Positions 1,943 through 51,439 are shown, numbered from the whole stretch's first letter. The stretch: 62,664 nucleotides of DNA, filler included, from 6 parts of 6 records of this genome joined end to end with filler, not necessarily neighbours in it, one strand, 5' to 3'. Made by a program: numbers and translations. Notes: generated from the sequence alone by a model not told the origin.

Positions 1943-2183
1943 CGACTCTCCGTTAAAGTGCGTTTACGGGGCGGTGTATCGTCGCTCTTATAGGTTCATG
2001 CGAATTCGAGCCGCACATCGGGCCAAGGAACTTTGCAAAAACTCGCACACTTGCCAACGAATGCCACTTTCGAGAATTTTCGATTTCTTTTGGCCCCATG
2101 TTGAGACAGCTCACGCATTGCTTGTTGAGTCGGCAAGGATACCACCTGCCGCATCAAACCTCCATCTTGTCAGGAATCGAGCA

Positions 2184-15016: not shown

Positions 15017-16414
15017 ATGAAGTTACCGCTACGTCCGCTTCTCATTCTGCTAACCCTACATGCACTGTACCCTGCCGCCACTCCAGCAGAGCAAGATTCT
15101 GCACCCCAAAAACCGAAATCGGAACTCAACTGGCACTCATCGCTCGAGAAGGCGATGGAAGAGAGCCAGCGAAGCGGCAAACCCATCTTGATGGAAATCC
15201 ACGGCCGACCATGGTGCCCGCCGTGCGTTGCGCAGGGCGAAAAGATCATGCAACAGCCAGAGTTCGCTGACTGGGCAAAGAACAATGTCGTGCTTCTTGA
15301 GATTCGAGTCGGAGAGGGCTACAGCAAAGAGAAGGGCAGTCCCATTTGGGCTGAGCAGTTTCGCAAACACAAGCTTCCCGGAATTCCGGCCGCCGTAATG
15401 CTAACATCCGAGGGCGAACGAATCGGAACGATTTACCCAAAGCCAGACATACACCAATGGATCGGTGCCGCGAGCAACCTACTGACCTCGAACGCCTTGT
15501 CAAAGCAATCGACAGCACCTGATACTAAATCGCTTCCCTTTCGAATTACCGAATCGAACAATATCTCTGTTCCGGCAACTCTGAATGGACGAATCGGTCT
15601 GAACCTAATGTTCCACACTGCTGTCGACTCGGTCTCGCTAACCAAAGAAACCGTTGAACGCTTTCCCGAGATCAAGCTGACTCAATCGGTAGAAACTGAG
15701 ACATGGAGCGGCAGCTCGGACACGCGTTTCGGCAAGGCAACTCTCGCCCTTGGCGGACTTTTGGACCGCCAGGTCACCGTCTTCGAAAGCTTAAAGTCTG
15801 GGCAAGGAACTGACGGCAAGTTTGGCCCCGAACAACTTCATGCTAAGGCATTTGCAATTGATTTCACCAGCTCGGAAATCAAGTTGCTTCCTGAGATTCC
15901 GCAACAGGTCGCCGCGCCGGATTCGGAATGGCAAAGCTTTGATGGACTGGTAGATTCAGAATTGCTGTTCGTGGAGGCAAACCTTTCCAACGGCAAGCTG
16001 GCCAGCACCAAAGAACAAGGCAGCGCGGACGAGGCGGCTAGCGGCTCAGAATACACGGAAACCGTCCGTTTCCTGCTACATTCTGGCTACAGCGGTTTTG
16101 GACTGCTCGACACAGCGCAGGTTGCGAAAAGCGATTTCTTGCAGAACCTACACGTTGAGAAAGAAAACGAGCTTTCCGATTCATCGGGGAGAAAAGTGTC
16201 GACCAAGCTTGTACGCGTCCCGCGATTCCAGTTCTCTGATTCAGAACTCGCAGATGTTCCGATGTCGTACTTCGACGGATCACTAGGACAACAACGGTTC
16301 AGCTTGCTCGGCTGCGACTTTCTCAGGCGGTACGACTGGGTATTCGACCTATCGAACGACCGCGTCTATTTTCGCGCCAACAAGGCACTCAAGACCAACT
16401 ATTTCATCAAGTAG
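15017..16414 (+). CDS. Thioredoxin-like domain fused to tandem retropepsin-like aspartyl-protease domains
   Basis: Signal peptide; WCPPC; LMFHTAV and FLLHSGY at the DTG/DSG positions; LLGCDFLRRYDWVFD retropepsin-type end. Confidence 0.7.
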   Translation: MKLPLRPLLILLTLHALYPAATPAEQDSAPQKPKSELNWHSSLEKAMEESQRSGKPILMEIHGRPWCPPCVAQGEKIMQQPEFADWAKNNVVLLEIRVGEGYSKEKGSPIWAEQFRKHKLPGIPAAVMLTSEGERIGTIYPKPDIHQWIGAASNLLTSNALSKQSTAPDTKSLPFRITESNNISVPATLNGRIGLNLMFHTAVDSVSLTKETVERFPEIKLTQSVETETWSGSSDTRFGKATLALGGLLDRQVTVFESLKSGQGTDGKFGPEQLHAKAFAIDFTSSEIKLLPEIPQQVAAPDSEWQSFDGLVDSELLFVEANLSNGKLASTKEQGSADEAASGSEYTETVRFLLHSGYSGFGLLDTAQVAKSDFLQNLHVEKENELSDSSGRKVSTKLVRVPRFQFSDSELADVPMSYFDGSLGQQRFSLLGCDFLRRYDWVFDLSNDRVYFRANKALKTNYFIK

Positions 16415-16490: not shown

Positions 16491-17231
16491 TTATTGCTTT
16501 CGCGATCGGCGAATCGCAAAGCACGCAGTAGCGAGACCAAGCAACATTGCGCTACCTGGCTCCGGTACAGCCGATAGACCCCGCGACTCAATGAAGTGCT
16601 CTACGCCAGCTTCGAATTGCGCTTCTTCCAAACCACGGTTCAAGACGATACCGAAAGATTCCGAATTGGCGATTCCAGCTCCACTGGAATTGAGCTCTAG
16701 GACGAAACCATACGCTCCGACTGGCGCTGAATCACTGAGCACCCACTCCACGTGCTGGTGGATGTCGCCCCTTCCACCGCTTCCTGCGATCTCGCCCGTT
16801 GCACGATCAATAATGTTGCGGAACGCACCATCGACAAACGATGCTTCAGCGTGAGTCGCACCGGCTTGGGTGAGGATATTGTTTGGCGAAGCGGTGGCGT
16901 GCTCGAAGGTAATGCTTGCGTCGGTCGTCGCCTCTGCAGCGCCATTCCAATAGTACAAGCTACCGAGGATATCGTAGCCCATGTAATCAAGTGCATTGAT
17001 CCCCAGACCGTCCGAAACTTCCGAAATGAAGCCAGGGTCGTCTGTTCCAAAGGTCCCAGCAACATCAGCAAAGCTACCTTCAAAAATGCGACCCTCGCTA
17101 CCGAATTCGACATCAACCATCGAATCAACGTAGCTGAATTCGATATCAGAGTGACCGTGCTGAGCTAGGGAACTACGAGCCCCCAAGCAGCTCAAGGCCG
17201 CGATCGCGAACACAAAAACAAAACGTTTCAT
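16491..17231 (-). CDS. PEP-CTERM surface protein with His motifs (putative metal-binding)
   Basis: Signal peptide; mature N-terminus QHGHSD; DDPGF; GDIHQH; C-terminal VPEPGSAMLLGLATACFAIRRSRKQ. Confidence 0.85.
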   Translation of the reverse strand: MKRFVFVFAIAALSCLGARSSLAQHGHSDIEFSYVDSMVDVEFGSEGRIFEGSFADVAGTFGTDDPGFISEVSDGLGINALDYMGYDILGSLYYWNGAAEATTDASITFEHATASPNNILTQAGATHAEASFVDGAFRNIIDRATGEIAGSGGRGDIHQHVEWVLSDSAPVGAYGFVLELNSSGAGIANSESFGIVLNRGLEEAQFEAGVEHFIESRGLSAVPEPGSAMLLGLATACFAIRRSRKQ

Positions 17232-17291
17232 TTGTAACTCCAGTTGAAAAACAAAAAGTGATTTGATGCCGCCCCCAAACAGCAGCGGATT

Positions 17292-17876
17292 CTAATGATC
17301 ATGATCGGGCAGGATTGGTCGCCCCACTGGCGTCAACGACTTGGGTGGAGGATCCCCTTTGGCGAGAGCTCTAATCGCGGCTGCAACATACTGCTCACGG
17401 ACGTTCCCTGGGTCAAAAGTGCTATCGTCCATCGGACCAGAGAAACGGAGCTCACCATCACGATCAAATACAAAAAAGCTGGGCGTATGTGATGCTGACA
17501 ATCGCGATGCAATTACCTGCTCACAGTCGTCAAGTACGGGAAACGTAAACTTCGCCTCGCGATTGAACTCTTCTAACCCTCCATGCGAAACCATCACGGC
17601 TGCGAAGGCCGAAGACTTCGACGAACTCGCCAAACGTTTGAGACGCGTTAAAACTCCAGCGGTTGCCTGGCAGTCGGCAGACAACACGCATACGACGCTT
17701 GAATCAGCACCAGAGCTAAGCGCTTCGCCCAACTCGGCATTCAACTCGATCAGTTCGGACAGGGCAGGCGCCGGCTGGTCGCTCTCAACTGAGAACATTG
17801 AATTTGCCTCGCTCGCCGGTCTCGAACAGGCAGCCAGCCCCGTGAGGGAGATCATGAAAACAAGACGAAACATCAC
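17292..17876 (-). CDS. Redoxin (AhpC/TSA-like) domain lipoprotein
   Basis: Lipobox LAAC; FTFPVLDD...A-HTPSFFVFDRDGELRFSGPMDD; ends PDHDH; start overlaps the DUF1559 stop codon. Confidence 0.75.
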   Translation of the reverse strand: MMFRLVFMISLTGLAACSRPASEANSMFSVESDQPAPALSELIELNAELGEALSSGADSSVVCVLSADCQATAGVLTRLKRLASSSKSSAFAAVMVSHGGLEEFNREAKFTFPVLDDCEQVIASRLSASHTPSFFVFDRDGELRFSGPMDDSTFDPGNVREQYVAAAIRALAKGDPPPKSLTPVGRPILPDHDH

Positions 17877-18967
17877 TGCGGCAACTCCACAACTTCACCA
17901 TCGTTGCGTGATCCGAGAAGCCACCATACTTCTGCATCGATTCCCTGGCTGATGAAATGCACACTGCCGTCGCCGAGGGCCGCATTCACGCCCCCGGTGT
18001 GATTGCTACTTGGCGTAATAATGTTGTCGCCAGTGCCTTCGCCACCGTGGTAATGGCAATTCCACTTGTTTGGCGAATACACATGCATGTACGTCGGCGC
18101 GGTCAAGGTCCACCCACTAATCCAAGAACGTCCCTGAAAGGCCGAATGGAAAGTATCATGGTGTGCCAACTCGCAATTCCGCTGTATCTCGCTTTGCACA
18201 CGTGCCCGCTCAGTTGTGTGACGGGAAACCATTCGCTGATCCGCGTTGCGAATCTCGCGAGACGATTGCGCCTGCATTATCAAACGCTCTGAAATTGCGA
18301 CGGTGTTGGTAAGCCCATCGGTTACGTCCGCCATACGAACTTTGCGAACATGCCAGGGTACCTGCTCGGCTGGAGAATTCATTGCCATTAGGCCATTGTG
18401 AGTTGCATTGGGTGCGGAGCGTTCGCCGCGCACACCAAGCGACCACGAAGGCCAACCCGCATTGGCCGCGTAGCTATCGGATGCGGGATTAGCCGACCCC
18501 ATGACAATTTGATTTTGGTGGTTCGCAGGATCCGAGGGACAAAGAAAAGCCGGAATGACGGCGCGAGACGCAGCGGCATTCACGTGCGATTCACTAATCG
18601 TTGCACCGTAGATATTGTTACACTGTCCCGAGTCAGCCATTTCGACGCGGAAATCGATACTGTTGTACAGATTGCCTTGTTCAATCTGCGGCAGAATGTA
18701 GGCCATCCAGCTATAGAACCCAGACGTACATCCCGCACCTGAACGCGTGCCGCCGCCGGTCATGGTCATCGGGAATGTTTTGTGAATATCGTGGTAGTTG
18801 TGAAAAGCCAGGCCTAGCTGCTTCAAATTGTTCGAACACTGCATCCGCCGAGCCGCTTCTCTGGCAGCTTGTACTGCGGGCAATAGCAGTCCCACCAGAA
18901 TGCCGATGATGGCAATAACCACGAGCAACTCCACCAGCGTGAAGGCTCTTCGCGTTTGTGAATTCAT
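17873..18967 (-). CDS. DUF1559 prepilin-type N-terminal cleavage/methylation protein (copy 1)
   Basis: [60 protein letters not shown]9-DG end (HTGGVNAALGDG). Confidence 0.95.
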   Translation of the reverse strand: MNSQTRRAFTLVELLVVIAIIGILVGLLLPAVQAAREAARRMQCSNNLKQLGLAFHNYHDIHKTFPMTMTGGGTRSGAGCTSGFYSWMAYILPQIEQGNLYNSIDFRVEMADSGQCNNIYGATISESHVNAAASRAVIPAFLCPSDPANHQNQIVMGSANPASDSYAANAGWPSWSLGVRGERSAPNATHNGLMAMNSPAEQVPWHVRKVRMADVTDGLTNTVAISERLIMQAQSSREIRNADQRMVSRHTTERARVQSEIQRNCELAHHDTFHSAFQGRSWISGWTLTAPTYMHVYSPNKWNCHYHGGEGTGDNIITPSSNHTGGVNAALGDGSVHFISQGIDAEVWWLLGSRNDGEVVELPQ

Positions 18968-19319
18968 AAAAGCAATCCTCGCCAACAATAATTTGAATCG
19001 TCTGCGATCATGGTGACGTCAGATGATTCGGTGACCAATTCGCCGAAGCCAGGAGAATGGCTGCGGCGGACAAATCACCGATTCAATTTCGTTAAGGTGC
19101 TCCACCGCGAGCAGCCAAGTGGCCAGGGTTTGGTCGGACCGTTGACCTGAATGACCGAAACACGGTGGAACATATGGAAGAGGCGCATCGTTCTAAATCG
19201 ATGCATCTCTAAGCACTTTGGTCAATCCGCAAATCTTCATTGACTCACCGAGCGCACAACGTTGCGCCGGAGAGAAAGAGATGCGACGATTCGGCTAAGA
19301 GACCGAATCCAAGTGGGAA

Positions 19320-19739
19320 CTAAGCCGGCGGCCCTCGAGAGACAGCAACTGGCAAGTCTCCAGCGGTCGCACGTGCTAGTGGCTGGGCCGCACGATGTGC
19401 AGGCGGGCTGCCACAGCAGTTGAGGACCGGGAAAACCACGTCAGAAGAGTAGACGACATACAGTGCCTGACACACAACGCAGTGATCTTCATCATGCGAC
19501 GGGTGCTCGCCCTGCTTGGAATTGTCGGCGTCCGCCAAAGAAACCGACACGGGCCGGCAGCCCGAGTGGCTGCATCCACAAGGAGATGGGCCGAGGCGTT
19601 CCGGAGCATCCGCATGCTCGTACGTACGTGCCGCCGCGCCATGACAAGTTATGCCATGATGATGGATCGCGACCAGATTGCTCAATGCAACCTGCCCACA
19701 GATCAAAAGCGTTAAGAGGGTACGGACCGAGGGCGCCAT
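19320..19739 (-). CDS. His/Cys-rich small protein with CxxC and C-terminal RGPP (DUF2946/CruR-like candidate leader peptide, copy 1)
   Basis: Hydrophobic N-terminus, HHH, CGCSHSGC, HDEDHCVVC, ends VSRGPPA*. Confidence 0.8.
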   Translation of the reverse strand: MAPSVRTLLTLLICGQVALSNLVAIHHHGITCHGAAARTYEHADAPERLGPSPCGCSHSGCRPVSVSLADADNSKQGEHPSHDEDHCVVCQALYVVYSSDVVFPVLNCCGSPPAHRAAQPLARATAGDLPVAVSRGPPA

Positions 19740-20122
19740 TTGGGCTCAACAGTGGAACTTACTGGGTTTTGCAACGGTCCGACCAAGACTTGCGTTGTTC
19801 ACTGTGACTCGTCACCCTGCATTTGTCAAGTCCGACGAGATCTGTCGCAGATGCTATTCAGTAGCCCGCTTCGAAGTAGATGGGGGTTGCGAATACACTC
19901 CTCGAAATCCACGTCCCTTTGGAACTCGCAACCTCCTCCACCAGCCTCGATTTATAGCAGAACCCAGTAAATCCTCTCGTGACATATGATCTGGCGAAAC
20001 ATCCCAGCACTTTGAACGTAGGAAACGAAGCCTGTCACGAATGCGTGAACTATAGTTGACTGCGGGAAATTGCTCCGTCGACCCATGGCAAGCCTATTCC
20101 TCACTCGAGGTGCCTCTTCTCC

Positions 20123-20830
20123 ATGCACAACCATGCTCACGAACTGACCCTCGGTCTAGCCTTTTTCCTAGGCGCAGTTCACGCTCTCGAGCCAGGACAT
20201 GGCAAAACGGCAATGCTCGTTTATCTTTCCGGAGAGCGGAAGGGGTTTTGGCACCCCTTCGTCATGGGGATTTCCAGCGGCATCGCTCACTCAGTTTCCC
20301 TGATTGCGATCGCCATCGTTGTCCACCTGACGCAGCATGCTGTCACGGGAGATCACCACCACGAAGACGCTCGCGTCGTTTCGGCGATGCAGTGGATCAG
20401 CGGTTTGCTTGTATTGGCGATCGGTTGCTGGATGCTGGTGGGAGCAATTCGATCCAAACCGTCGCAATGTAGCTGCAAGAACCATCGTGGCGATGCTGAT
20501 TGCGAGCCAAAGCCACTTGGCAAACGTCGCAGCTACTCGATGAGCGCACTGCTGGGAGTCGCCTTCGGGCTTCTGCCGTGCCCCTCGGCCCTGGCGGCTT
20601 ACTTCACAAGCATGTCGACAGGCGCGCCGGTTGCAGCTTACGCAGTGATTGGGCTCTTTGCTGCTGGAATTGCCAGTTCACTCACTTCAGTAGGCTTACT
20701 GGTCCAACGTTTCGGCGATCGACTGTACAACCGCGAAAGCCGCCTAGCACGTCTGCCTTGGCCGCACATTCGAGCCATCCTGATCCTTTGCGTGGGCGCT
20801 CTCTACACGTATCGAGCTGCTATGGCTTAG
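20123..20830 (+). CDS. RcnA-like nickel/cobalt transporter (NiCoT-related)
   Basis: HALEPGHGKT, HS motif, GDHHHED loop, GLLPCPSAL; about 6 TM helices; N-terminal MHNHAH. Confidence 0.85.
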   Translation: MHNHAHELTLGLAFFLGAVHALEPGHGKTAMLVYLSGERKGFWHPFVMGISSGIAHSVSLIAIAIVVHLTQHAVTGDHHHEDARVVSAMQWISGLLVLAIGCWMLVGAIRSKPSQCSCKNHRGDADCEPKPLGKRRSYSMSALLGVAFGLLPCPSALAAYFTSMSTGAPVAAYAVIGLFAAGIASSLTSVGLLVQRFGDRLYNRESRLARLPWPHIRAILILCVGALYTYRAAMA

Positions 20831-22067
20831 GCGTGGGCTCTGACTGGCGAGGCATCGGAAAGATGATTTCGGCTCGTCGGAATGTCTCCGGGTCCAGCTT
20901 CTTGAATTCTGCCAACGCCTCCTTGGCGGGCGCGAGCGGACACCGACGCAAATAGTTGATTATCGGAAGCCGCATATACTGCTGATGCGGTTCGATATTG
21001 CGAAATCGTTTCGACAACTTTGAAACATAACGCCAGTCTTCCAGCCGCGCGAGGTCAGGGATCACGACATCTGCGAAGGCCGAGTCATCCAGCAAGACTG
21101 CCAGCGATGCACAGATATCCTTCTTATCGAGCACAGAGAACTCTTGGGTGTGAGCTCGAAGCGCGGAGACGGTCGAGAATCGCGCTGAGACTTCTGAATT
21201 TTTGTTGCCAAGTATTTTGTCCGTCACGTCCCGCAATGCATCCTTGCCGCCGAGCAGCAGATAGCACGAGATCGCGGCATCGAGCCCCAATTCATCCCGC
21301 TCGATCCCTGGAGTGGCTTTGCCTTGGGGGTTGAACACCATGCGTTTGACGAAATCAAGATCTTCCCTGCTGCCAGCAAGCCCTAAGACAGTCCAGTAGA
21401 ATCGCCGGAAGCTAAGTGATGTTTCCGCGTCGGCCAAACGCTTCTTAACTTCGCCCAGATCAACACCCTTAACCCAGGGCTGCAACTGTTCAACGGAAAC
21501 GGTTGCGAAAGCGTTGTAGGCATCTCGCTGCACCCAAGAATCACTCGATGCAAGCCCGCGCCAATACAGATCCAGCCATTGGTGCTCCGTGTCTCCACCC
21601 TCAGCGGCCCGACCAGCAAGCTTCTGCTGCAGGTCAACAACCGACTGAATGTACTCAAGCGCAGTCTTAGCGAGAGGTTCCGAAGGCGCCCAGTCAACCC
21701 CTTCGCTATCTCCAATCCCGAACATGAGCACCTTGTTGCCGTTGGCGAACTCCTTGTCTGAGTAGGCGCTCACCAGACTCCCCGGCGCAAAAACTGGCTT
21801 ACCCGAGAGCAACTTCGATTTGAATACTGTCTCGACTTCAAATGTGTGAATCGAAAACTCGGCGTCTTCCGCCGCAACCTGCTTGCAGTTTGCCAAAGCG
21901 ACGAAGTCTAGCTGTGAAAGTTCTTCGCGCAGGCTACTGGCAAGGGCAGTACAAAAAGGGCAAGCAACTACGCGAGCGGCTGAGAATGCAATGCAAATCC
22001 AAACCGCCATCGTGAATTGTAAGACACGGCATGAAACACGAAGTTTCGTTGGTTGCTGCACAGACAT
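20820..22067 (-). CDS. Secreted hypothetical protein with CPFC at the predicted mature N-terminus and a helical C-terminal region
   Basis: Signal peptide ending VVA-CPFC; long open frame; overlaps the 3' end of the convergent transporter gene by 11 nt. Confidence 0.7.
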   Translation of the reverse strand: MSVQQPTKLRVSCRVLQFTMAVWICIAFSAARVVACPFCTALASSLREELSQLDFVALANCKQVAAEDAEFSIHTFEVETVFKSKLLSGKPVFAPGSLVSAYSDKEFANGNKVLMFGIGDSEGVDWAPSEPLAKTALEYIQSVVDLQQKLAGRAAEGGDTEHQWLDLYWRGLASSDSWVQRDAYNAFATVSVEQLQPWVKGVDLGEVKKRLADAETSLSFRRFYWTVLGLAGSREDLDFVKRMVFNPQGKATPGIERDELGLDAAISCYLLLGGKDALRDVTDKILGNKNSEVSARFSTVSALRAHTQEFSVLDKKDICASLAVLLDDSAFADVVIPDLARLEDWRYVSKLSKRFRNIEPHQQYMRLPIINYLRRCPLAPAKEALAEFKKLDPETFRRAEIIFPMPRQSEPTPKP

Positions 22068-22193
22068 AGTGTTACCGCCAATGTGTTCGCTACCGAACGG
22101 AGTTAGCCAATCGACAACGCCAGACTGTAGTCGATGAGCTCATTTATTCTGGACTCACAAAACTGCGCTGCGAAATTTGCCGCGAAATCTTGC

Positions 22194-22670
22194 TCACGAC
22201 TTCCGCCTGCCGGCGGTCACCACACCTGAGCGACCTTGGATTTCAGCAACGATCAACAGACCGCAGCCTACCATGGGAAGCGCATGACAGAGAACACTGG
22301 ATAGCACCGGAGGAGCAGAAGATGGATACCCAGCGATGTAAGCAACCAGCTCGTCGCAACAACCCTCCGACGGTTGAACACCGGGCAAAAGAAGCACCAA
22401 CGCAAGTATGGTCACACTATAGCTGTGCTTCCAGCCAGAAACCACAGTTCTACAGAATATCCCGATGGTGCCCAAGAGAACCAGGGCCACAATAGCGAAT
22501 TGGTTCAGGGTTTGAAAACGAAGCACCGACTCTGCCAAAGCCATCGAATCCAATGCCAGCAACAGCACGACGCTTGAGTAACCCAGCACTCCACCAGCGA
22601 TCCACGGCAGAAACTCATCTGTCAAAAAGCCCGTCTTAACGGGCGTCCTTCGACGCACTGGTGAAGCCAT
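22194..22670 (-). CDS. Hypothetical membrane protein
   Basis: ATG 22670 lies 2 nt after the upstream stop; about 4 hydrophobic segments; GCCD and LCH motifs. Confidence 0.55.
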   Translation of the reverse strand: MASPVRRRTPVKTGFLTDEFLPWIAGGVLGYSSVVLLLALDSMALAESVLRFQTLNQFAIVALVLLGTIGIFCRTVVSGWKHSYSVTILALVLLLPGVQPSEGCCDELVAYIAGYPSSAPPVLSSVLCHALPMVGCGLLIVAEIQGRSGVVTAGRRKS

Positions 22671-22672
22671 CG

Positions 22673-24562
22673 CTACACAACTCCCAGGGCGGAATAGATG
22701 TAGCTGGTGAACAACTGGTAGGAATCTCTCCAAAAGACCAACACTAGGATCGTGCTGGTAAAGATCCACAGAGTTGCTGGCCATGACCTTGCGGCACCAA
22801 AACCCACTCGACCCGGCAGACCGCCGACGAGTGGTATTTGGCAAATGATCGACACCACTGCCGCCACAGCCAGTACAAGCAAGACCGTTTCATAACCGCA
22901 GGCTACGCCGACGAGAGCAAGGCTGAACGCCACGTTGGCTCGGTCATTCGGTTCGCGTGCAGCCCCTCCATATAGCTCGTTGGCAGGAGCACCTTCAACG
23001 GACACGTCACTCTGCTCACCTTCACACTCATCCGCACCGAGAGAACCCGCGCCGCTCGCGACTCCACCAGATTCACTTCCATGCGTCACCTGATCCCTCG
23101 CCTCATCTTGCTCGGTGTTGCCCGCTACCGCCTCTAACTTTGCAGCCGCACTGGCCGATACATCGACAAGATCGCCTGACGCGGCCGTGGAACTCGTTGA
23201 TCGAGGCGACAAAAACCAAAGCACTGGAGACGCTGCCAGGCCGACTAAGCCACCGAGCAAAGTAACAACGAGACTAGCTGGAATTGACGACGAGCCCCAA
23301 TCCTTCCAAGCGGGTGTGATCGGATTTAGGTGCCCAAACAGACTCACGAGGATCGCGGCAAGACCAATCGCGCACAGTCCACTTCGAAGCGGAACGCGAA
23401 ACTGATCGTAGTTGATCATCCCCCAGGCCAGCAGGGTTACCAGGACGATCATGTGGAAGAAATACAAACTGAGCAGATCCCACTTCGTATACAACAGGAT
23501 CCACACGATCCCGCTGTAAGTGTTCTCGGTCCGCACTGGCAAATTGGCTCCACCGGAGAGCAACTCGCGGAAATAGAAGATCACGAACACCAGGCCGACA
23601 ACGGCCTCGATGATTGGGTAGCGAGCTGAAATAGGAACACTACAGTTCCGGCATTTGCCACCCAGGCGAAGCCACGCCAGCACCGGAATGTTATCGATGC
23701 CAGAGATTTCTTCTTGACAGTTTGGGCAAGCCGACGAGGGCAGGAACAACGGGCGCCTGCGCGGCAGACGGAATATCACAACATTGAGAAAACTACCAAT
23801 GCTGGCTCCTGCGGCCAGGAAGATCAGCATCACTGCAACGGACACAGCGTGTAGACGAACCGATTCGGCAATTGTCATATCGGTCAGTCGCTTGATGCTG
23901 GCGGTCGACGGCCAAATCAAGTCTTGGATCATGGACACCGTAGGAACGGCAACCAGGTAGATAAACGCTGCGGATGCTAAGACGATCGCGACAGCATATC
24001 GTGACCAAAACGGTCGCGTTAAAGCCTCCTGCGGAAGGCCCTCTACCTGGTCCTCCGGTGCAATTACACTCTCACCTTGCACATCCATCTCATCTAGCCC
24101 TCCCGAACCGGAGGCTTCTGTGGTTGCTACTGCATTGCGGCGGTTGTGCACGCTCGCCGCCATTAACACAAAACTGAAACTGATCAGCGCATACAGAGCG
24201 AACAGGTGAGCCTGACAGTGCTCCCAAGTGAACAGACCTGCTGTGGAAACCACGATAACCACGGCCGTCATCGCTACGGAGCTCCATCGCTGGTTCGTCG
24301 CGGCCACGACCGCCAAAGCGAGAACGAAGCAAAGTCCGCAGATCAAGGCGGCGACTGCCCAGTGAGTAGGCTCGGTCGACAACTGACAGGTAAGCTGATG
24401 AAGGAGGACCGCAGCGGCCCCACAAGCAATGGAAGGCCACGCAGCTAAGCACGTATAGGTCAACCAAAGACTTGCAGTCCCACTGTTGCGACTCGGTGTA
24501 TGGTCAGCGGGAAGCTGGCTTCCGGTCTCAGCCCAATACGAAGTTGTAGATGTAGATTGCAT
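22673..24562 (-). CDS. A24 prepilin-peptidase-like membrane protein with an N-terminal multi-TM extension; catalytic motifs degenerate
   Basis: IGSFLNVVIFRLP...SACPNC...DNIPVLAWLRLGGKCRNC.VPISARYP (A24 N-terminal 4-Cys domain); start placed at ATG 24562 after AGGA. Confidence 0.8.
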   Translation of the reverse strand: MQSTSTTSYWAETGSQLPADHTPSRNSGTASLWLTYTCLAAWPSIACGAAAVLLHQLTCQLSTEPTHWAVAALICGLCFVLALAVVAATNQRWSSVAMTAVVIVVSTAGLFTWEHCQAHLFALYALISFSFVLMAASVHNRRNAVATTEASGSGGLDEMDVQGESVIAPEDQVEGLPQEALTRPFWSRYAVAIVLASAAFIYLVAVPTVSMIQDLIWPSTASIKRLTDMTIAESVRLHAVSVAVMLIFLAAGASIGSFLNVVIFRLPRRRPLFLPSSACPNCQEEISGIDNIPVLAWLRLGGKCRNCSVPISARYPIIEAVVGLVFVIFYFRELLSGGANLPVRTENTYSGIVWILLYTKWDLLSLYFFHMIVLVTLLAWGMINYDQFRVPLRSGLCAIGLAAILVSLFGHLNPITPAWKDWGSSSIPASLVVTLLGGLVGLAASPVLWFLSPRSTSSTAASGDLVDVSASAAAKLEAVAGNTEQDEARDQVTHGSESGGVASGAGSLGADECEGEQSDVSVEGAPANELYGGAAREPNDRANVAFSLALVGVACGYETVLLVLAVAAVVSIICQIPLVGGLPGRVGFGAARSWPATLWIFTSTILVLVFWRDSYQLFTSYIYSALGVV

Positions 24563-24697
24563 ACTGACACTTTTCCTGAAACGAGACCGCGCCACAGCAG
24601 CTTCGACTGTGGCACGGGGCGTCCGCCATTGGTCACATTGACCTAGCCCAACTAGCGCAACTCATCGTTACATCAAACTGGGCAAACATACCGGGCT

Positions 24698-26026
24698 CTA
24701 GCCACCAACGCTAATCAAACGCGTTGGCGTTCCACCAACCTTGAGAGTCGCTTGGACACTCCAGTCTCGAACCGAGATAACGGCGATCGTACCGTCGCCA
24801 GGATTCGAGACCAGCAAGAACCTGCTGCCAATTGCAGAAACACCGTGATGCCCACTGTGTCCCTGAATCTGACTCCGACCAACGCCGAGCGTCTTTATCG
24901 GGCTGGCATCAGACAAGTCTCCATCACGATTCGGATCGAGCTCAACAACGTGCATCTTCTCACCGTCGGCCTCGGCGTTCTCTTCGAATATGACCGCGTA
25001 CATCCTGCCCGCCCGAGTCTTCATGACCGTCGGCGTCAAAGCTGAGTTGCCTTCGCCGATCCCGAGAACCAGCTTTTGGCACGATGGTTTGGGACTCGAG
25101 GCGTCAATCATACAAAGCTCCGCGTCGGTGCCTCGTCCAGCAATGAACAGCACGTACTTCCCAAGGTTGGCAAATGCGCCGGTTCGCTTTGCTGTTCCAC
25201 TTGCATCCTGGCCGAGATCAATGTGGTGGACTTCTTGATCTTGCGAAGGAGCCGCTGTGCTCACCCAGCAAACACCTTCTGAAGGAGCAAAGAATGCTTT
25301 GCCGCTGTTGTACGTCGCCCCGTGAATTCCTCCTGAGGGAAGGAAAAACGAGCGCTCCACGTCGGATCCAGAATCTAGTCCGACGACATCAACCCGCCCC
25401 TTGTTTTCACCATCTCGATCGATCCAGGTCGAGTATCCCACTTTGTTCTTGCTGACGGCCAACGTAATGTGCCCACCGCCGGCTGAGAAGAACTGGTCAG
25501 GCTTGGAGCCCTTCCTAATGGCACTAGGTTGCACTCGAGTGAAGCCGTTTTTCTTGTCGTTAGCTAAGTACCAGCTATCGCCGTAGTGATACACGTGAGC
25601 GGGATTGCCTTGCTTGTCGTCTAACGTGACAAGCTTGACCGATGGTGCATCATCCAGATGCCAATGAAAGTGGTCCCCGTGAGACTCCTTCGTCGCACCG
25701 CTGTTAATGGCTACCCATCCACTTTGGAAGTTGCCGTCGTCATCGTCGCGTACGCCCAGCAGCACGAGCTCATCAATCGCCTTCATCTGGACAAGCATAT
25801 GACGCTCGGGATCAACTTCCGGATGCCCAGCCAATTCCTGCTTCTCGAGCGAATACTTGTCGCCCCTTTTTAAGTCGCCCCAATGGACCGTCTGCGTCTG
25901 GGTATCCTGCCAAAAAACCCTGGCGATCGTGCGCGGTTTCTTACCACTGGATGCTTCTTGCGCAGTGCCGACCGTGCTTCCGCAGGCAACGGCTGCACAG
26001 AGCGCTAATAGAACTTTTGATTTCAT
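24698..26026 (-). CDS. Secreted beta-propeller with clustered His motifs (AztD-like metal chaperone candidate)
   Basis: Signal peptide; ESHGDHFHWH, GNPAHVY, GGGHITLA, GIHGA, GHSGHHG; ends VGGTPTRL. Confidence 0.65.
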   Translation of the reverse strand: MKSKVLLALCAAVACGSTVGTAQEASSGKKPRTIARVFWQDTQTQTVHWGDLKRGDKYSLEKQELAGHPEVDPERHMLVQMKAIDELVLLGVRDDDDGNFQSGWVAINSGATKESHGDHFHWHLDDAPSVKLVTLDDKQGNPAHVYHYGDSWYLANDKKNGFTRVQPSAIRKGSKPDQFFSAGGGHITLAVSKNKVGYSTWIDRDGENKGRVDVVGLDSGSDVERSFFLPSGGIHGATYNSGKAFFAPSEGVCWVSTAAPSQDQEVHHIDLGQDASGTAKRTGAFANLGKYVLFIAGRGTDAELCMIDASSPKPSCQKLVLGIGEGNSALTPTVMKTRAGRMYAVIFEENAEADGEKMHVVELDPNRDGDLSDASPIKTLGVGRSQIQGHSGHHGVSAIGSRFLLVSNPGDGTIAVISVRDWSVQATLKVGGTPTRLISVGG

Positions 26027-26092
26027 ATCCGAATTGCTTTCTGTATTGAATTGAATGTCTTCTCGCTTGTTTCACCGAGAGTCGCGGCTGCG

Positions 26093-27745
26093 CTAGTTAT
26101 CTCGAATGCAGTACAAACGAGTTCCAGTGCGAACAACAATGCTGTCGCCCGACGCGATGGCCCCATAGACGATCGGGTCTCGAGCACTACTACGCGAGCT
26201 GGCTCGGCGGGCGGCAAAGCTCTCAGCCATCGCCTTTAGCTCAGCGGCATCAAGCGCTCCATCGCCGTTGGTGTCGATTCGCGGCAGCATCCTTTTGAAG
26301 TCTTCCGGCACTTCGTCGGCTGACAAGTTGCCATCACCGTTCTTGTCACCACGCATCATGGCGGCCATCATCCCACCACCAGGACGTCGCGTAGCACCTG
26401 AGCCAGAGTCAGATGAGCCCGGTTTGCCTGAGTCGGATGCACCATGCTTAGCGCCTTCAGATTGCCCGTGCTTAGCACCCTCAGATTGACCGTGAGATGA
26501 TTGGCCAGCGGCAGAGTGGCTAGTGGAAGAATGACCGTGCCCGTGCCCTCCGCCGGAGTTCTCAACGTAAGTCTCGGGCTTAGGAGGATTCTCGCTGTCC
26601 CACAACTGATTTGTTGCAATCAACGAGTACTCTTTACCGGCGGCGATCACTTGAGCGGTACCGTTCTTCGCGAAGACGTACAGTCGCCCTTGAGCAGCAA
26701 TTGGTGTCGCCCAGGACTCTCCCGACAGGCGCTTTCGATAACACGTCTCGCCAGTCTCGCCATCGACACAGGTCAGCACGCCGACTTTGTTGATGAAGTA
26801 AACATGACGACCAATTGCGACTGGACTTGCGTAGTCACTGATTGCTCGGTCAGCCCGCCACGCCACTGCCGGTGCACCGGATTCCATACTTGCTAGATCG
26901 ACGCAGCAGTTGGATCGAACCGACCCCTCTTTGGCGAACTCTGGCAATCGCGCTCCGATATAGATGTGGTCGCCAACGGGAGTCGGCGAAGGCACTGAGT
27001 TGCCGTCCAGCCCATCGACAGTCCAGAGTGCTTCACCGTTGCTGGCAGCGTAGGCCGTCAAGCTGCCGGCAGAACTAACAAGAACCTGAGACTTCCCATC
27101 GTGCTCCATAACGACCGGCGACGACCAACTCGAACCAGAAGGCCTCTCAGTTTTCCAATCAATCGCACCGGATTCTTTGTTTACGGCAACTAGATAGCTC
27201 GGTCCCTTGTGCTCAAGATTGAGGAAAAGGTGCGAGTCGTTTTGAGCGGGCGAACTTCCCAGTCCATGGTTGTTCTCGAACTTTCCAAGTTCATCGCTCA
27301 AGTTCCGCTTCCACAACTGCTCGCCAGCGTTACTGACGGCAACAATGTCACCGCTTTCGAAGAACGCGTAGACGCCGCGCTGGTCGGCAACAGGTGTCGG
27401 AGCGGCTCGCGATGCCATGTAGTTCGAAGCCGCTTTGGCCGATGCCTCCACCTCCTGCCGCCAAATCTCCGAACCGTCCTCCAGCGACAGACAAACTATC
27501 GCCAGGGTATCTTTCATCGGCCCAACAACGGCCGTCACGTAGACCTGCCCACCGACGATAACAGGCGTCGACTGACCGTAACCCGGCAGCTCCAACTGCC
27601 ACGCGATGCCGTTACCGGGTTCCCATTGACTCGGTAGCGGGCAGTCGGCTGCGCTGCTACCTCCATTTCGGAAGCTCGTCCAATCCCCCAGCGCGGTCAT
27701 CGGAGACAGCGCTAAGGCGACGAGTGCGATTGTTCTAGTTTTCAT
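26093..27745 (-). CDS. PQQ-binding-like beta-propeller with an inserted His-rich linker and EF-hand pair
   Basis: GDWTSFRNGG, GYGQSTPV, GSSWSSPV, YASPV; insert GHGHGH...DKNGDGNLSADE...DTNGDGALDAAE; ends RTGTRLYCI. Start reassigned to ATG 27745. Confidence 0.85.
   Translation of the reverse strand: MKTRTIALVALALSPMTALGDWTSFRNGGSSAADCPLPSQWEPGNGIAWQLELPGYGQSTPVIVGGQVYVTAVVGPMKDTLAIVCLSLEDGSEIWRQEVEASAKAASNYMASRAAPTPVADQRGVYAFFESGDIVAVSNAGEQLWKRNLSDELGKFENNHGLGSSPAQNDSHLFLNLEHKGPSYLVAVNKESGAIDWKTERPSGSSWSSPVVMEHDGKSQVLVSSAGSLTAYAASNGEALWTVDGLDGNSVPSPTPVGDHIYIGARLPEFAKEGSVRSNCCVDLASMESGAPAVAWRADRAISDYASPVAIGRHVYFINKVGVLTCVDGETGETCYRKRLSGESWATPIAAQGRLYVFAKNGTAQVIAAGKEYSLIATNQLWDSENPPKPETYVENSGGGHGHGHSSTSHSAAGQSSHGQSEGAKHGQSEGAKHGASDSGKPGSSDSGSGATRRPGGGMMAAMMRGDKNGDGNLSADEVPEDFKRMLPRIDTNGDGALDAAELKAMAESFAARRASSRSSARDPIVYGAIASGDSIVVRTGTRLYCIRDN
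26423..26494 (-). repeat. In-frame 24-bp tandem repeat (HGQSEGAK x2 + HGASDSGK)
   Basis: CTTAGCGCCTTCAGATTGCCCGTG (26447-26470) and CTTAGCACCCTCAGATTGACCGTG (26471-26494), plus a diverged copy at 26423-26446. Confidence 0.8.
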
Positions 27746-27786
27746 TCTCTTTATTTCTACTGTATGCAGTGTGTTGTTTTGAACGC

Positions 27787-27856
27787 GCACGGCGCGGCGA
27801 GGCGCCGTGTGAACGCAAAGGCCACCTAAGCCGCTCTTGGGCGAGATGGCCTTTGC
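27787..27856. other. Two adjacent intergenic stem-loops inside the operon
   Basis: GCACGGCGC/GCGCCGTGT (27787-27810) and GCAAAGGCCA/TGGCCTTTGC (27815-27856). Confidence 0.55.
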
Positions 27857-27871
27857 TTTGTCTTTGCGACG

Positions 27872-28291
27872 CTAGAGCCGGCGAACAGCCTTCTTGGGTA
27901 GCTCGATCAGGATCTTTTGCTCACTTGTCGGCCAGCTTAGGGCCAGCGGCGATTTCTCTGGGTCGGACCAAGGAGCTGCCAGACGCCAATCCCCGAGTGA
28001 CTCCACCACGACGCGATACTCAGTCACTTCAGAGCTAGGCACGTTTCCGTCGACAGCCATCATCCCCGCTACTCCAGCGGGGCCGGTAATACCCGTCATA
28101 ACAGGATCCGTTGTGTCCAAAGGAGCGAGCACTACCTGCACGTCAGGTACTGGATGCCCGTCAATCTGCACTTCGACATCGAAGTATGTTTCTTGAACAC
28201 CTCCTGCACCCGAGCAACCGGCGATACAGACAGCAAACAATCCAACTGGGAGAATCAGCGAGAATGCAGCCCGCTGCTTAGAGTTCATCAT
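27872..28291 (-). CDS. Small lipoprotein (carboxypeptidase-regulatory-like fold) of the type that follows DUF1559 genes
   Basis: Lipobox [36 protein letters not shown]; start overlaps the end of the DUF1559 gene. Confidence 0.7.
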
Positions 28292-29321
28292 GGCTGAACG
28301 TCTCCCCACCATTTCGAGAATGCACTGCCCAGTGAACTTGCTGGCTTACGCTGCTGCTAATGAAACGAACACTGCCGTCACCCAGTGCAATGTTTGCACC
28401 ACCGGTGTGCAGGCTGCGGGGTGCGAACCAGCCACGGCCGTGGACGGTAACGTCCGGAATGCGATTGTTGGGTGTCAGGTATCCGTTGGTGACGACCGCG
28501 TAGGGAACACCACGAATCCAAGTTTCACCACGGGTGCCGCGATAGCTACTGATCTCCGATGGAACAACCGCATTCAGGTCGGGATTGCGAATCGTCGCTC
28601 CTCCGATGCTGAAGCCCGGTTGGCCTGGAGGATTGCCGCTTGAACCCGACCACGATGCCAAACGGCGATGAATCAAGTTGCCGACAGGTGGATCAGTGCT
28701 GCGAATTCCGTCGCCGATGAGTGCCTCCGAAAGCATGACCGTATTGGAAGTCCCATCGGTGATGTCACCGAAGCGAGCCCACGAGTTCGTCCAAACAAAT
28801 CCATCTGTTGGGAAGCGGTCATCGTAGTTGGTATCGGTGCCCGAGCCGTAGGAGAACATATAGTTCAACCCTGCGACAGTCACCTCATTTCCAGCCGCGT
28901 CGGTCACCACGCGTGTAGGTTCGGCCGAATCACTAGGGCAAAGGAAGGTCGAGACAACGGTCTGGGCCGCTGGCACGAACAACGGATTGAGGGAAGCTCG
29001 CCAGGGCGGTCCGACATAGAGCGGCTGACTGTAATCAATCAAATTCTCTAAGTTGCCTTGCTCGATGAAAGGCAAGATTCGAGCCTGCGGAGAGAAGGAA
29101 CTCGAACCGGTCAGCCCCGGGAATCGCTTGTATGCAGATTCGTAGTTGTGAGTAGCCAGCGCGAGCTGCTTTAGGTTGTTGGAACACTGCATTCTCCGAG
29201 CGGCTTCGCGTGCCGCCTGAACAGCGGGCAGCAACAGCCCAACAAGAATGCCGATGATGGCGATAACAACTAGTAGCTCCACCAGCGTAAAGCCGTCACG
29301 TTTAAGGGAATGATTTTTCAT
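28278..29321 (-). CDS. DUF1559 prepilin-type N-terminal cleavage/methylation protein (copy 2)
   Basis: [70 protein letters not shown]. Confidence 0.95.
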
Positions 29322-29550
29322 GATTTGTATGACTTATGAATATTGTGTTTTAGGTTTTCTTGGCCCAATAACTCTGGGCCACCAGGAACGTTCAGCGAAG
29401 GGTAATGCCGACCACGTGGGGCGCACGTTGGGTCTTTTGCGGGCACAGCTTCTGCGGAAGCCGCGTCTCTGCGCTGCCACGAAAGCAGATTTTCTCCGAC
29501 CAGACAGAGCGCAATGCTTCTAGCTGTTCAGCGAATCACTACGCAGCGAG

Positions 29551-29611
29551 ATTCGTGCGCAGTAACATTCGTTGCGCAATGACACTCGTTGCGCGATAAC
29601 ACTCGTTGCGC
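29551..29611. repeat. 17-bp tandem repeat, 3 copies plus a partial copy
   Basis: AGTAACATTCGTTGCGC, AATGACACTCGTTGCGC, GATAACACTCGTTGCGC at 29561-29611, preceded by ATTCGTGCGC. Confidence 0.85.
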
Positions 29612-29704
29612 ACATTGGCTCCACTGCATGGAATGGATTCAATGCAACCGTCCGAATCGGAGATAGCAATCAGCGCGTAGCGGAACGCGATAAAGAAACG
29701 TCGT

Positions 29705-30151
29705 CTAGGCAGCGGGGGGACCGCGAGCCTGCTGACAAAGAACGACCTGTGGAACAAGAACATCCACATACGCAGCAAGCGCGACGACCAGCCGGGCATG
29801 CGAAACGCGGGATGAAGCAAGCCCGCGCGATTGAGCCGCGGCATAGAAGTCGCAGATGGAGCACGGCCCGTGATAGTCGGCCGCGGTTATGCCAGATCTG
29901 AAATCGTGAGCAGCCGTCGCACCTTGATGGTGATCGACGTCGGATTTGACAAACGGTGAATTAGTGTGTTCAGAGCGATGCGCATGGCAATCACACTGCT
30001 CGTGCGACGACGGTGCCTGCAGATCGCAAGCAGCATCAGCGCAGCACGCTGCATGTTCATCATGATGGTGATGATGCCAATGAGGCCCAATGGCGACTGG
30101 GATTCCGTAGAACACCAGCAGGGCTATAGAGACTGAACGAGTGTTGAACAC
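29705..30151 (-). CDS. His/Cys-rich small protein with CxxC and C-terminal RGPP (DUF2946/CruR-like candidate leader peptide, copy 2)
   Basis: Hydrophobic N-terminus, HWHHHHHDEH, CC, CDCHAH, HGPCSIC, ends QARGPPAA*. Confidence 0.82.
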   Translation of the reverse strand: MFNTRSVSIALLVFYGIPVAIGPHWHHHHHDEHAACCADAACDLQAPSSHEQCDCHAHRSEHTNSPFVKSDVDHHQGATAAHDFRSGITAADYHGPCSICDFYAAAQSRGLASSRVSHARLVVALAAYVDVLVPQVVLCQQARGPPAA

Positions 30152-30564
30152 CGTTGCTGAGAACTCCGCACATGAAAGATCGTTGTTGAGATCACGGGTG
30201 CGGTCCGACCACTTGTGACTCTACGCACTCCCAAAGGCATCGTCAAGGATGTACTTCTCGAATCTTCTCGATCCGCTCTTCTTTTGTTCTCGGCCAGCTC
30301 CCCGCGATCCAGCAGAGCGCGCACTTCAAACGGCCAGCACCGATGCAACGCCAAGCTCTAACCTGCAACCGCTCCCGCGGCTTGAGAGACGAAGAACTTT
30401 CGGTGCTACCGCCCAACCCGCAGCCACTCAAGCAGATCACGGGGCCTTTCAATCACCGTAGGCGGAGCCTTTGTGTCCTCGGATGCCCAGGCAGCCGAAC
30501 CCTGCACGGCTCTGCGAACCCTGGTTCTGTTGAGTGCGTCTGGCGCAGGCCCGCCGGGCTACTT

Positions 30565-30606
30565 ACTAGCGCAGATTCACTAGCGCAGATTCACTAGCGC
30601 AGATTC
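30565..30606. repeat. Perfect 14-bp tandem repeat x3 (ACTAGCGCAGATTC)
   Basis: Read directly from the sequence. Confidence 0.95.
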
Positions 30607-30680
30607 AATCGTTGACTTGACCTGCTGATTGAACCGGGGCAACTCAGTTCCTCACCTTGAGTCGCCTTCTTCGTAGTGGA

Positions 30681-30780
30681 NNNNNNNNNNNNNNNNNNNN
30701 NNNNNNNNNNNNNNNNNNNNNNNNTTAATTAATTAANNNNNNNNNNNNNNNNNNNNNNNNNNNNNNNNNNNNNNNNNNNN
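30681..30780. other. Artificial contig linker (N44-TTAATTAATTAA-N44)
   Basis: N runs around a cassette with stops in all six frames; gene content and GC change across it. Confidence 0.98.
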
Positions 30781-36478: not shown

Positions 36479-36578
36479 NNNNNNNNNNNNNNNNNNNNNN
36501 NNNNNNNNNNNNNNNNNNNNNNTTAATTAATTAANNNNNNNNNNNNNNNNNNNNNNNNNNNNNNNNNNNNNNNNNNNN
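36479..36578. other. Artificial contig linker
   Basis: N44-TTAATTAATTAA-N44. Confidence 0.98.
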
Positions 36579-44167: not shown

Positions 44168-44267
44168 NNNNNNNNNNNNNNNNNNNNNNNNNNNNNNNNN
44201 NNNNNNNNNNNTTAATTAATTAANNNNNNNNNNNNNNNNNNNNNNNNNNNNNNNNNNNNNNNNNNNN
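44168..44267. other. Artificial contig linker
   Basis: N44-TTAATTAATTAA-N44. Confidence 0.98.
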
Positions 44268-51339: not shown

Positions 51340-51439
51340 NNNNNNNNNNNNNNNNNNNNNNNNNNNNNNNNNNNNNNNNNNNNTTAATTAATTAANNNNN
51401 NNNNNNNNNNNNNNNNNNNNNNNNNNNNNNNNNNNNNNN
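51340..51439. other. Artificial contig linker
   Basis: N44-TTAATTAATTAA-N44. Confidence 0.98.

Follow-up and report, generated by a model that had tools for sequence, protein, structure and literature searches.

Probable metal-limitation operons headed by arrest-type leaders and DUF1559 prepilin-like genes in a planctomycete

Within a 62,664-nucleotide (nt) stretch of DNA (the window), in which contigs are joined by N spacers, we analyzed the region 16491-30151, comprising two operons read from the minus strand that both fall inside the first contig (1-30680). Each of them (operons A and B) opens with a short His/Cys-rich open reading frame (ORF), the leader, which ends in the motif RGPP beside its stop codon and is followed, after a long gap, by a gene encoding a prepilin-like protein of the DUF1559 family. 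In our judgement, the region probably comprises two operons that answer metal limitation in a Pirellulaceae-type planctomycete, each switched by a DUF2946-type arrest leader, zinc limitation being the likeliest signal. An initial annotation of the same DNA had proposed a metal-acquisition system in which one layout occurs twice; the gene layout that it reported is confirmed and its interpretation is partly supported, the repetition not being a strict one, as the two gaps are unrelated and only gap A carries the hairpin described below.

Leader architecture and its pairing with DUF1559 genes

Leader A (19320-19739, minus strand; 139 residues) has an N-terminal hydrophobic export segment, is rich in His and Cys and ends in SRGPPA, and leader B (29705-30151, minus strand; 148 residues) likewise carries an export segment, together with an HHHHH tract and the C-terminus ARGPPAA. 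Their CxxC motifs are located at 19470-19481 and 29852-29863 and their RGPP motifs at 19326-19337 and 29714-29725, one and two residues from the stop, with a CxxC-to-RGPP spacing of 44 residues in leader A and 42 in leader B. Judged by a hydropathy scan only, the best 17-residue segments reach 1.98 and 2.05, respectively. The export signal, the CxxC, the conserved spacing and the stop-adjacent RGPP are all present in both leaders, as in the DUF2946-type uORFs to which the initial annotation likened them. The corresponding spacing is 45 residues in CruR and reportedly varies by no more than 1-2 residues across over 2000 DUF2946 proteins (PMC9426467). RAPP and RGPP have been demonstrated to be robust arrest motifs; bacterial proteomes are described as strongly depleted of RAPP-like motifs, except for the small exported products of upstream ORFs (uORFs) that stand before metal and other genes, whose C-termini are enriched in them (PMC12992588).

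In the whole window, only three frames of at least 40 residues have R[GA]PP four residues or fewer from the stop, and two of these sit before the window's sole two prepilin-motif genes, which argues that the arrangement is more than chance. Pairwise, leaders A and B can be aligned over RGPPA alone; their homology becomes visible through intermediates, namely P0001 and P0002 (homologues of leader B, both retaining RGPP), P0003 (leader A) and six more leaders located upstream of DUF1559 genes in related contigs. Database homologues are few, with two for leader B and one for leader A among 1.84 billion representatives. Across an alignment of 11 leaders the CxxC is invariant, as is R-PP with Gly or Ala in between, and PF11162 (DUF2946) is matched by 6 of the 11 aligned relatives at E<=10 (best E 7.1e-5). 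Since these relatives match PF11162 and share the design, and the two leaders' own scores lie below the cut-off, we take leaders A and B to be divergent relatives of the DUF2946 (CruR/CutF)-type RGPP arrest peptides that would work like CruR, not formal Pfam members.

A wider set of 51 distinct leaders was collected with a regular expression that required CxxC and allowed a spacer of 36-51 residues, so that the presence of CxxC in this set is a selection criterion and not independent evidence, whereas the narrower spacing range found is a result. The first Cys of the CxxC stands 46-50 residues ahead of the Arg, equivalent to 42-46 intervening residues, most commonly 43. The arrest motif is RGPP in 40 leaders and RAPP in 11, with 1-8 residues separating it from the stop; 43 of the 51 reach 1.6 or more in their best hydrophobic 17-mer (again by hydropathy scan only), and individual leaders contain 3-23 His and 3-17 Cys.

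Of the 80 public loci closest to DUF1559 B, 76 had at least 700 nt of upstream sequence, and an R[GA]PP-ending ORF was found within 900 nt upstream in 7 of these 76 and in five of the ten closest. One of the seven, at L077, has no usable start and was rejected as a chance occurrence. These counts indicate that the leader is absent at most DUF1559 paralogues. Searches with a leader profile start without bias towards DUF1559. In five genomes, this profile matched four and recovered 13 leaders, the next gene being DUF1559 in 8 of the 12 resolvable cases. In a sample of the same taxonomic family it matched 48 of 121 genomes, and 29 new family loci yielded 31 leaders, 12 of them followed by a DUF1559-type pilin motif and 3 lacking enough downstream sequence. 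Phylum-wide, matches were obtained in 9 of 201 genomes, the centre genome included, with a leader at 7 of 8 new loci and a DUF1559-type gene after 2 of these 7.

Taking the 51 leaders together, the gene next downstream encodes a DUF1559 protein in 26 cases (two of them, L016 and L106, doubtful), a DUF58-like membrane protein in 8, a class-III-signal (Flp-like) pilin in 5 and another prepilin in 2; a PQQ propeller, a PEP-CTERM protein, a CobW/COG0523 protein and a NicO homologue follow one leader each, three genes are unclassified and three leaders lie too near a contig end. The pooled DUF1559 share is somewhat inflated because 7 of the 51 leaders were taken from loci picked by DUF1559 similarity. 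DUF1559 genes are numerous, with 74 reported in R. baltica and 68 paralogues in P. limnophila, two of which are essential in the latter (PMC2754498; PMC10632474). By our own estimate, they make up roughly 1% of genes, and the adjacency of leader and DUF1559 is therefore far above chance. The initial annotation had pointed to a scan of other genomes for this adjacency; the pairing is conserved in many of them. In Blastopirellula marina DSM 3645, a cultured relative, a RAPP leader stands immediately before a DUF1559 gene (L084/L125).

The gap hairpin and the complementary 5' motif

Gap A comprises 331 nt and gap B 383 nt (29322-29704, minus strand), with no real sequence similarity between the two. 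Both had been described as structured. This is borne out for gap A, which folds far more stably than its shuffled counterparts (z -5.8 and -5.9; none of 100 shuffles equal), and is marginal for gap B (z -2.0; 3 of 100 shuffles equal). Gap A contains a hairpin of 85 positions (19088-19174, minus strand; 75.2 bits to a covariance model) with an invariant GGUCCGACC at its apex (19132-19140) and a U-containing tract 3' of it, making it a candidate attenuator or terminator.

The covariance model was built from six hairpin copies with a hand-projected structure; RNAalifold applied to a plain MAFFT alignment recovers the basal stem only. Over the 841,487 nt of collected loci, the model returned 16 rows at E<0.01, corresponding to 12 distinct places, each in sense orientation within a post-leader gap, regardless of the cargo, which is DUF1559 at seven, a class-III-signal pilin at four and too near a contig end to be read at one (L115). 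L001, the orthologue of gap B, is among the loci that do carry the hairpin. In the model-fitted alignment of 11 copies, 90.5% of cells pair, compared to 71.7% in shuffles, and both-sided changes occur in 21 of 28 pairs, whereas slid controls pair at 40-47%; these figures are generous, because a model-fitted alignment leans towards the structure. In five whole genomes, with 150 first-look candidates scored per genome, all six hits lie directly 3' of a leader, and one of them precedes an A24_N-like gene. No Rfam family matched the segment 16000-30680 at E<=1.

The sequence GGUCGGACC, located at the mRNA's predicted 5' end, is the complement of the apical loop GGUCCGACC. The 9-mer GGTCGGACC occurs six times in the window, compared to 0.63 expected, and each leader has one copy 8-16 nt downstream of a predicted -10 element, near the predicted transcript start: at 19776-19784 (minus strand) in the predicted 5' untranslated region of leader A, with a TTGACA -35-like hexamer upstream (19824-19829), and at 30202-30210 (minus strand) for leader B, beginning 8 nt past the predicted -10 of a promoter-like site (30246-30218). 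In the promoter and terminator scan, predicted sites were no more numerous than in shuffles. Among the 51 leaders, GGTCGGACC is found at this 5' position in 14 and its complement in none; conversely, the complement GGTCCGACC is found in the post-leader gap in 11 and the forward form there in none, with both elements present at 7. At leader A, the complementarity between 5' motif and gap extends to 15 nt, and the gap copy GGTCCGACC forms the apical part of a long GC-rich hairpin. The strict orientation points to a strand-specific role, at the RNA level or otherwise oriented. The palindrome GGTCNGACC was also considered as an operator for a DNA-binding dimer; given the strict orientation (14:0 at the 5' end, 11:0 in the gap), an operator appears the less likely option. 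The loop is invariant and offers no covariation with the 5' motif; the two one-mismatch 5' variants at L083 and L109 would give one C-A mismatch and one G-U pair with the loop. In minimum free energy folds, no convincing base pairs joined the RGPP codons to the ribosome-binding site of DUF1559.

Several further features surround these elements. In B-type 5' regions (30160-30201; L082, L085, L086, L088, L089), CCGCAC...GTGCGG lies right behind GGTCGGACC, and L089 instead has CCGCAT...ATGCGG, a compensatory change that suggests a small 5'-terminal stem-loop. Three copies of GGTCGGACC lie in coding regions on the plus strand (3319-3327, 7549-7557 and 27961-27969), without TTGAC at promoter-like spacing and without the extended consensus. 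Gap B contains a 17-nt tandem repeat (29556-29612; 3.4 copies, 85% matches), which the aligned gaps of related loci lack, and a perfect 14-nt tandem repeat, ACTAGCGCAGATTC (30565-30607; 3.1 copies), precedes leader B by about 400 nt, close to where the contig ends.

Operon content and the AztD-like protein

An AztD-like propeller had been proposed within operon B, and this assignment is supported by fold and by those zinc-site residues that could be aligned. The 442-residue beta-propeller encoded at 24698-26026 (minus strand) matches no Pfam family, and its own family numbers at least 802 relatives, none functionally named among the 120 listed. In Foldseek, its structure model (predicted local distance difference test, pLDDT, 92.1) retrieved AztD chains as all nine of its best PDB matches, with E-values from 1.3e-15 to 3.6e-12 and template modelling (TM) scores of 0.68-0.73 on the target, the next fold following at 4e-8. 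The two best PDB sequences for the family profile are also AztD, and the protein scores 22.1 bits (E 5.3e-5; cut-off 400) with NCBIfam NF038015 (AztD). In AztD, site 1 is described as H124, H167 and H218, and site 2 as H99, H102, D104 and a C-terminal His (PMC6689063). The invariant H116, G117 and H119 and the near-invariant H121 of the 442-residue protein fall on site 2 (H99, G100, H102, D104), and the invariant H144 and H186 on site 1 (H124, H167), the alignment stopping short of AztD H218 and the C-terminal His. Model and alignment together suggest that the protein shares the eight-bladed propeller fold and most of the zinc ligands of AztD.

The first cargo gene of each operon, DUF1559 gene A (17873-18988, minus strand; PF07596 202.9 bits, 1.3e-59; N_methyl 28.8 bits) and gene B (28278-29321, minus strand; PF07596 227.1 bits; N_methyl 31.1 bits), encodes a prepilin-like protein. 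Gene A, whose true start is probably the ATG at 18967, carries the H-X9-DG motif TIGR04294 (38.2 bits). The DUF1559 B model (pLDDT 89.2) found nothing in the PDB at E<=0.001 with Foldseek, and a search independent of Foldseek gave 23 chains with Z>=2, every one of them a type IV pilin or pseudopilin (best Z 4.5). Such pilin-only matches argue for an enlarged pilin and not a classical solute-binding protein, and on this model DUF1559 B appears to adopt an enlarged type IV pilin fold. The invariant residues C46/C128, E87, D189, E199, H305 and D315-G316 could form a putative metal site, and DUF1559 may conceivably have a role in handling metal; the literature that mentions the family gives it no tested function. 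The complex prediction of DUF1559 B (36-347) with the AztD-like protein (28-442) scored 0.00, which is no evidence either way.

Further along operon B, a polytopic membrane protein of 640 residues (22673-24595, minus strand) has a four-Cys A24_N domain (102.1 bits), and neither this protein nor its L140 homologue matches the catalytic Peptidase_A24 domain PF01478 even at E<=10, in line with its description as a degenerate prepilin peptidase. The small lipoprotein of operon B (27872-28312, minus strand; lipobox IAGC, no family match) is kept beside DUF1559 B in L001. It precedes a PQQ_2/BamB-like beta-propeller with a His/Gly-rich tail and an EF-hand (26093-27790, minus strand), and such a propeller follows DUF1559 in L001, L005, L006, L009, L018, L128, L131 and L140, either directly, via a short ORF or after an unmatched spacer of at most about 570 nt. 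The operon ends with a membrane protein without family match (22194-22844, minus strand), which follows the A24_N gene in L002 too, and a 415-residue protein with an N-terminal CPFC (20820-22067, minus strand), a planctomycete-specific hypothetical protein that falls in the Atlas into unnamed planctomycete clusters only. Pfam scans of the genes of 16491-30151 revealed no ATP-binding cassette (ABC) importer and no cluster A-I binding protein.

Operon A continues with a lipoprotein gene (17292-17876, minus strand; lipobox LAAC) that overlaps the DUF1559 A stop by 4 nt. It had been called a redoxin lipoprotein; the lipoprotein part stands and the redoxin part is weak, its AhpC-TSA match scoring 23.3 bits with a cut-off of 26. 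The following exported protein (16491-17231, minus strand) is a PEP-CTERM protein as annotated (24.9 bits, cut-off 20.7) and, with 7 His in 246 residues, not the His-rich one envisaged; its homologues come after DUF1559 A-type genes in L123, L129 and L140. Between the operons, the RcnA-like transporter of the initial annotation is confirmed as a NicO/RcnA-family gene with a His-rich loop (20123-20830, plus strand; PF03824 36.7 bits, cut-off 27.7; DsbD_2 48.7 bits), which diverges from leader A.

Comparison of gene order shows that the B-type operon, composed of leader, DUF1559, sometimes a lipoprotein, the PQQ/EF-hand propeller, the 442-residue protein and often the A24_N protein, recurs in L001, L006, L131 and L140 and in shortened form in L124 and L133, and that the A-type operon, composed of leader, DUF1559 and PEP-CTERM proteins, recurs in L123 and L129 and, with the order rearranged, in L140, where a B-type and an A-type operon form a tandem like that of the window. 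In L129, a NicO homologue (44% identity) comes directly after a leader of its own, and CobW/COG0523 genes occur in the leader operons of L141 and L129. Other leader operons encode a weak ZrgA-like protein, ABC-2/DUF3526 permeases, ExbB and sets of MoxR, transglutaminase and DUF58 proteins. Metal genes (AztD-like, CobW/COG0523 and NicO) are present in leader operons, and several such operons have no obvious metal link. A loose fit was obtained for the suggestion that DUF1559 occupies the slot of a TonB-dependent receptor: such receptors, the customary cargo of CruR-type leaders, are near-absent from five genomes with related loci (0, 0, 0, 1 and 1 matches).

Three individual loci illustrate this variety. 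At L141 (G075:C3:14000-26000), the operon of a RAPP leader comprises CobW/COG0523, a weak ZrgA-like protein rich in His, DUF58, a transglutaminase-like protein and an AAA ATPase of the MoxR kind. At L143 (G021:C1:6185000-6188400, minus strand), a leader of 166 residues (ending in PRGPPLLV) comes first, then the hairpin, the gene of an A24_N-like membrane protein and a second leader of 142 residues (ending in PRGPPGG), an order which indicates that an A24_N-only protein can be direct leader cargo. At L093/L092 (G002:C782), two divergent leaders are placed back to back, with a Flp-like class-III-signal pilin and a short prepilin-peptidase-like ORF on one side and a DUF58-like membrane protein on the other.

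Elsewhere in the window, a Thioredoxin_7 domain fused to a retropepsin-like aspartyl protease domain is encoded at 15017-16414, on the opposite strand just past the 3' end of operon A. Reading of the translations further revealed a second BamB/PQQ-like propeller ORF (686-1942, minus strand) and, beside it, a Gly/Gln-rich ORF with EF-hand-like DxDxDG motifs (1779-2942, plus strand). Paired 44-N runs at 30681-30780, 36479-36578, 44168-44267, 51340-51439 and 56672-56771 imply at least six contigs, and the G+C content of about 0.55 climbs to 0.60-0.67 beyond 32 kb, so that the later contigs may stem from an organism other than that of the first.

Proposed switch, rival explanations and known systems

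We propose that the leader would enter the membrane co-translationally, and that its His/Cys tracts and CxxC would encounter metal with the ribosome positioned at the RGPP, which lies 42-44 residues beyond them beside the stop codon. By analogy to CruR, which heads uptake genes, the apo nascent leader would stay arrested at the RGPP and the downstream genes would be on, whereas metal bound by the emerging His/Cys/CxxC region would free the ribosome and lead to shut-off inside the long gap. In operon A, the shut-off element may be the conserved 85-nt hairpin with its short U-containing tract, and the 5' complement could act by long-range pairing with the loop or as a shared binding site. The output would be DUF1559 as first cargo, the AztD-like propeller, the His-rich/EF-hand PQQ-type propeller, the lipoproteins and the A24_N-only protein, with the NicO transporter adjoining. 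Zinc is favoured because the 442-residue protein has the AztD fold and, as far as it could be aligned, most of the AztD zinc ligands; COG0523 proteins, too, are linked to zinc. ABC-2 type permeases are reported to be Zur-regulated in Caulobacter (PMC4176598).

A number of observations weigh against this proposal. Leader A scores only 12.6 bits with Pfam PF11162 (E 0.24; cut-off 23.7) and leader B gave no match to it in the Pfam scan; canonical DUF2946 leaders sense copper, not zinc; and no AztC-type binding protein or zinc ABC importer is found in the window's contig. At the RNA level, the U tract behind the hairpin is short (2-4 U), and gap B contains no copy of the hairpin (best 5 bits with the covariance model), which makes an identical RNA mechanism in both operons impossible. 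The hairpin begins about 150 nt past the stop of leader A and, as an estimate, about 35-240 nt past the stop elsewhere, so that a stalled ribosome cannot mask it directly, and the C-over-G excess that a Rho site would suggest is not consistent in the gaps. Leaders also head class-III-signal pilins (5), DUF58-like proteins (8, of which two have MoxR and transglutaminase genes in their vicinity) and an A24_N-like gene, and given such operons without an obvious metal link the signal could be the envelope or secretion state.

This last point leads to the reading that the leaders monitor export or pilin biogenesis instead of metal, in the manner of SecM, MifM and the RAPP peptides ApdA/ApdP, and match pilin-like output to Sec/YidC or prepilin-processing capacity. 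It would account for the pilin-type gene after 33 of the 51 leaders (26 DUF1559, 5 class-III-signal pilins and 2 other prepilins) and for the A24_N-like gene after one, and the first-described RAPP arrest peptides control localisation genes (PMC12992588; PMC10987492). Such a monitor would need neither the invariant CxxC at DUF2946 spacing nor 3-23 His and 3-17 Cys, its cargo would not be expected to hold CobW/COG0523, NicO and an AztD-like protein with zinc ligands, and relief of CruR stalling is reportedly independent of the signal peptide (PMC9426467); we regard this reading as quite unlikely. That the same arrest switch senses copper, as do CruR and CutF, or nickel/cobalt in place of zinc is, in our view, unlikely. 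The CxxC is a copper ligand motif in CruR (PMC9426467), CutF senses periplasmic copper (10.1101/2025.02.05.636593) and the adjoining transporter is of the NicO (Ni/Co) family, but multicopper oxidase, CopA/CopC/CopD, PCuAC and YcnI were not seen among the operon proteins scanned, and the AztD-like zinc-site residues together with the CobW/COG0523 and ZrgA-like genes indicate zinc.

It is improbable, we think, that the leader CxxC senses the periplasmic thiol-disulfide redox state, a disulfide in the nascent chain giving the release force. The Cys content of the leaders (3-17), the thioredoxin-fold-like lipoprotein of operon A with the Thioredoxin_7 protein nearby (15017-16414) and the enrichment of RAPP/RGPP uORFs ahead of DsbA and thioredoxin genes (PMC12992588) would fit, whereas the thioredoxin match in operon A lies below its cut-off, His tracts such as the HHHHH right behind the membrane segment better suit metal binding and the majority of the cargo has no redox connection. 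Finally, the leaders are conserved as His/Cys-rich exported proteins and might simply be metal-binding proteins of a metallochaperone or metallothionein-like kind, non-regulatory, with RGPP and hairpin being incidental. Against this, which we hold to be highly improbable, R[GA]PP is invariant amid variable neighbours, always close to the stop (1-8 residues) and at constant spacing from the CxxC, RAPP-like motifs are avoided in proteomes outside such uORFs (PMC12992588), and the hairpin occurs only 3' of leader ORFs, as in 6 of 6 hits in the five whole genomes.

The zinc-limitation switch thus stays our preferred reading. An extended version of it, which we put forward as speculative and doubtful, would have a family with almost no TonB receptors acquire zinc or a related metal by a pilin route, in which a leader-controlled DUF1559 pseudopilin, handled by an A24_N-only membrane partner of its own, would build or tip a short envelope-spanning fibre that would capture metal and hand it to the AztD-like and His-rich propellers, under control of nascent-chain sensing combined with pairing of the mRNA 5' end with the attenuator loop. 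Because the leader class had already been described (PMC9426467; PMC12992588), the system is not wholly undescribed as first supposed; the DUF1559 cargo, the AztD-like/PQQ module and the hairpin were found in no paper of the literature searched, as far as its accessible text extends. DUF1559 is among the largest planctomycete paralogous families and would gain a concrete, testable role, a subset of it being consistently tied to an arrest leader and co-operonic with a predicted AztD-like zinc protein. Control of the CruR/CutF type would be extended to a new phylum, a likely new metal and a new cargo class, and the covarying hairpin with its complementary 5' motif may reveal how arrest becomes gene control.

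Compared to type IV pilins and pseudopilins of type II secretion systems (PilA4 6XXD, PulG 5WDA, EpsG 4LW9), DUF1559 shares the prepilin leader GFTLVELL and the long N-terminal helix, but has a head of about double the size, weak Z-scores (<=4.5) and an added C-terminal H-X9-DG (checked in gene A). With AztD of the AztABCD importer (PMC6689063; PDB 6CK1, 6CMK), the 442-residue protein appears to share the eight-bladed propeller, the site 2 HGDH hairpin and at least two of the three site 1 His; it differs by an identity of only 14-18%, by a His in place of Asp104 and by its neighbours, which are DUF1559 and a PQQ-type propeller and not aztABC. The leaders resemble the RAPP/RGPP class of Fujiwara et al. 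2025 (PMC12992588) in being exported, shorter than 300 residues, equipped with a near-C-terminal RGPP and located upstream of varied genes, including those for metal homeostasis. The main text of that study names TonB receptors, YcnI, PCuAC, PepSY and DsbA/thioredoxin as downstream classes and contains 'DUF1559' and 'pilin' zero times, while its figures or supplements may list the class.

CutF of Rhodobacter capsulatus (10.1101/2025.02.05.636593; PMC9973294) is, as described there, likewise an exported nascent sensor with a C-terminal proline motif and a gap stem-loop as output, stalling being assumed here by analogy. It switches on a detoxifying oxidase at high copper, whereas the cargo here resembles scavenging genes, and its stem-loop shields the ribosome-binding site of the next gene, whereas the hairpin here precedes the DUF1559 start by at least about 100 nt. 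In comparison to CruR (Bp2923, Bordetella pertussis; PMC9426467), the leaders here score below the Pfam cut-off, end in RGPP instead of RAPP and have added His tracts and many more Cys; the gap measures 331-383 nt instead of 162, the gene that follows is of the pilin-like DUF1559 kind where CruR has a TonB-dependent receptor, the metal is probably zinc instead of copper and a conserved hairpin may take the place of the Rho site described for CruR. As reported for CruR, a small exported uORF with CxxC, about 45 residues and R-A/G-P-P near the stop heads the operon, followed by a long gap and a cargo that would serve metal acquisition.

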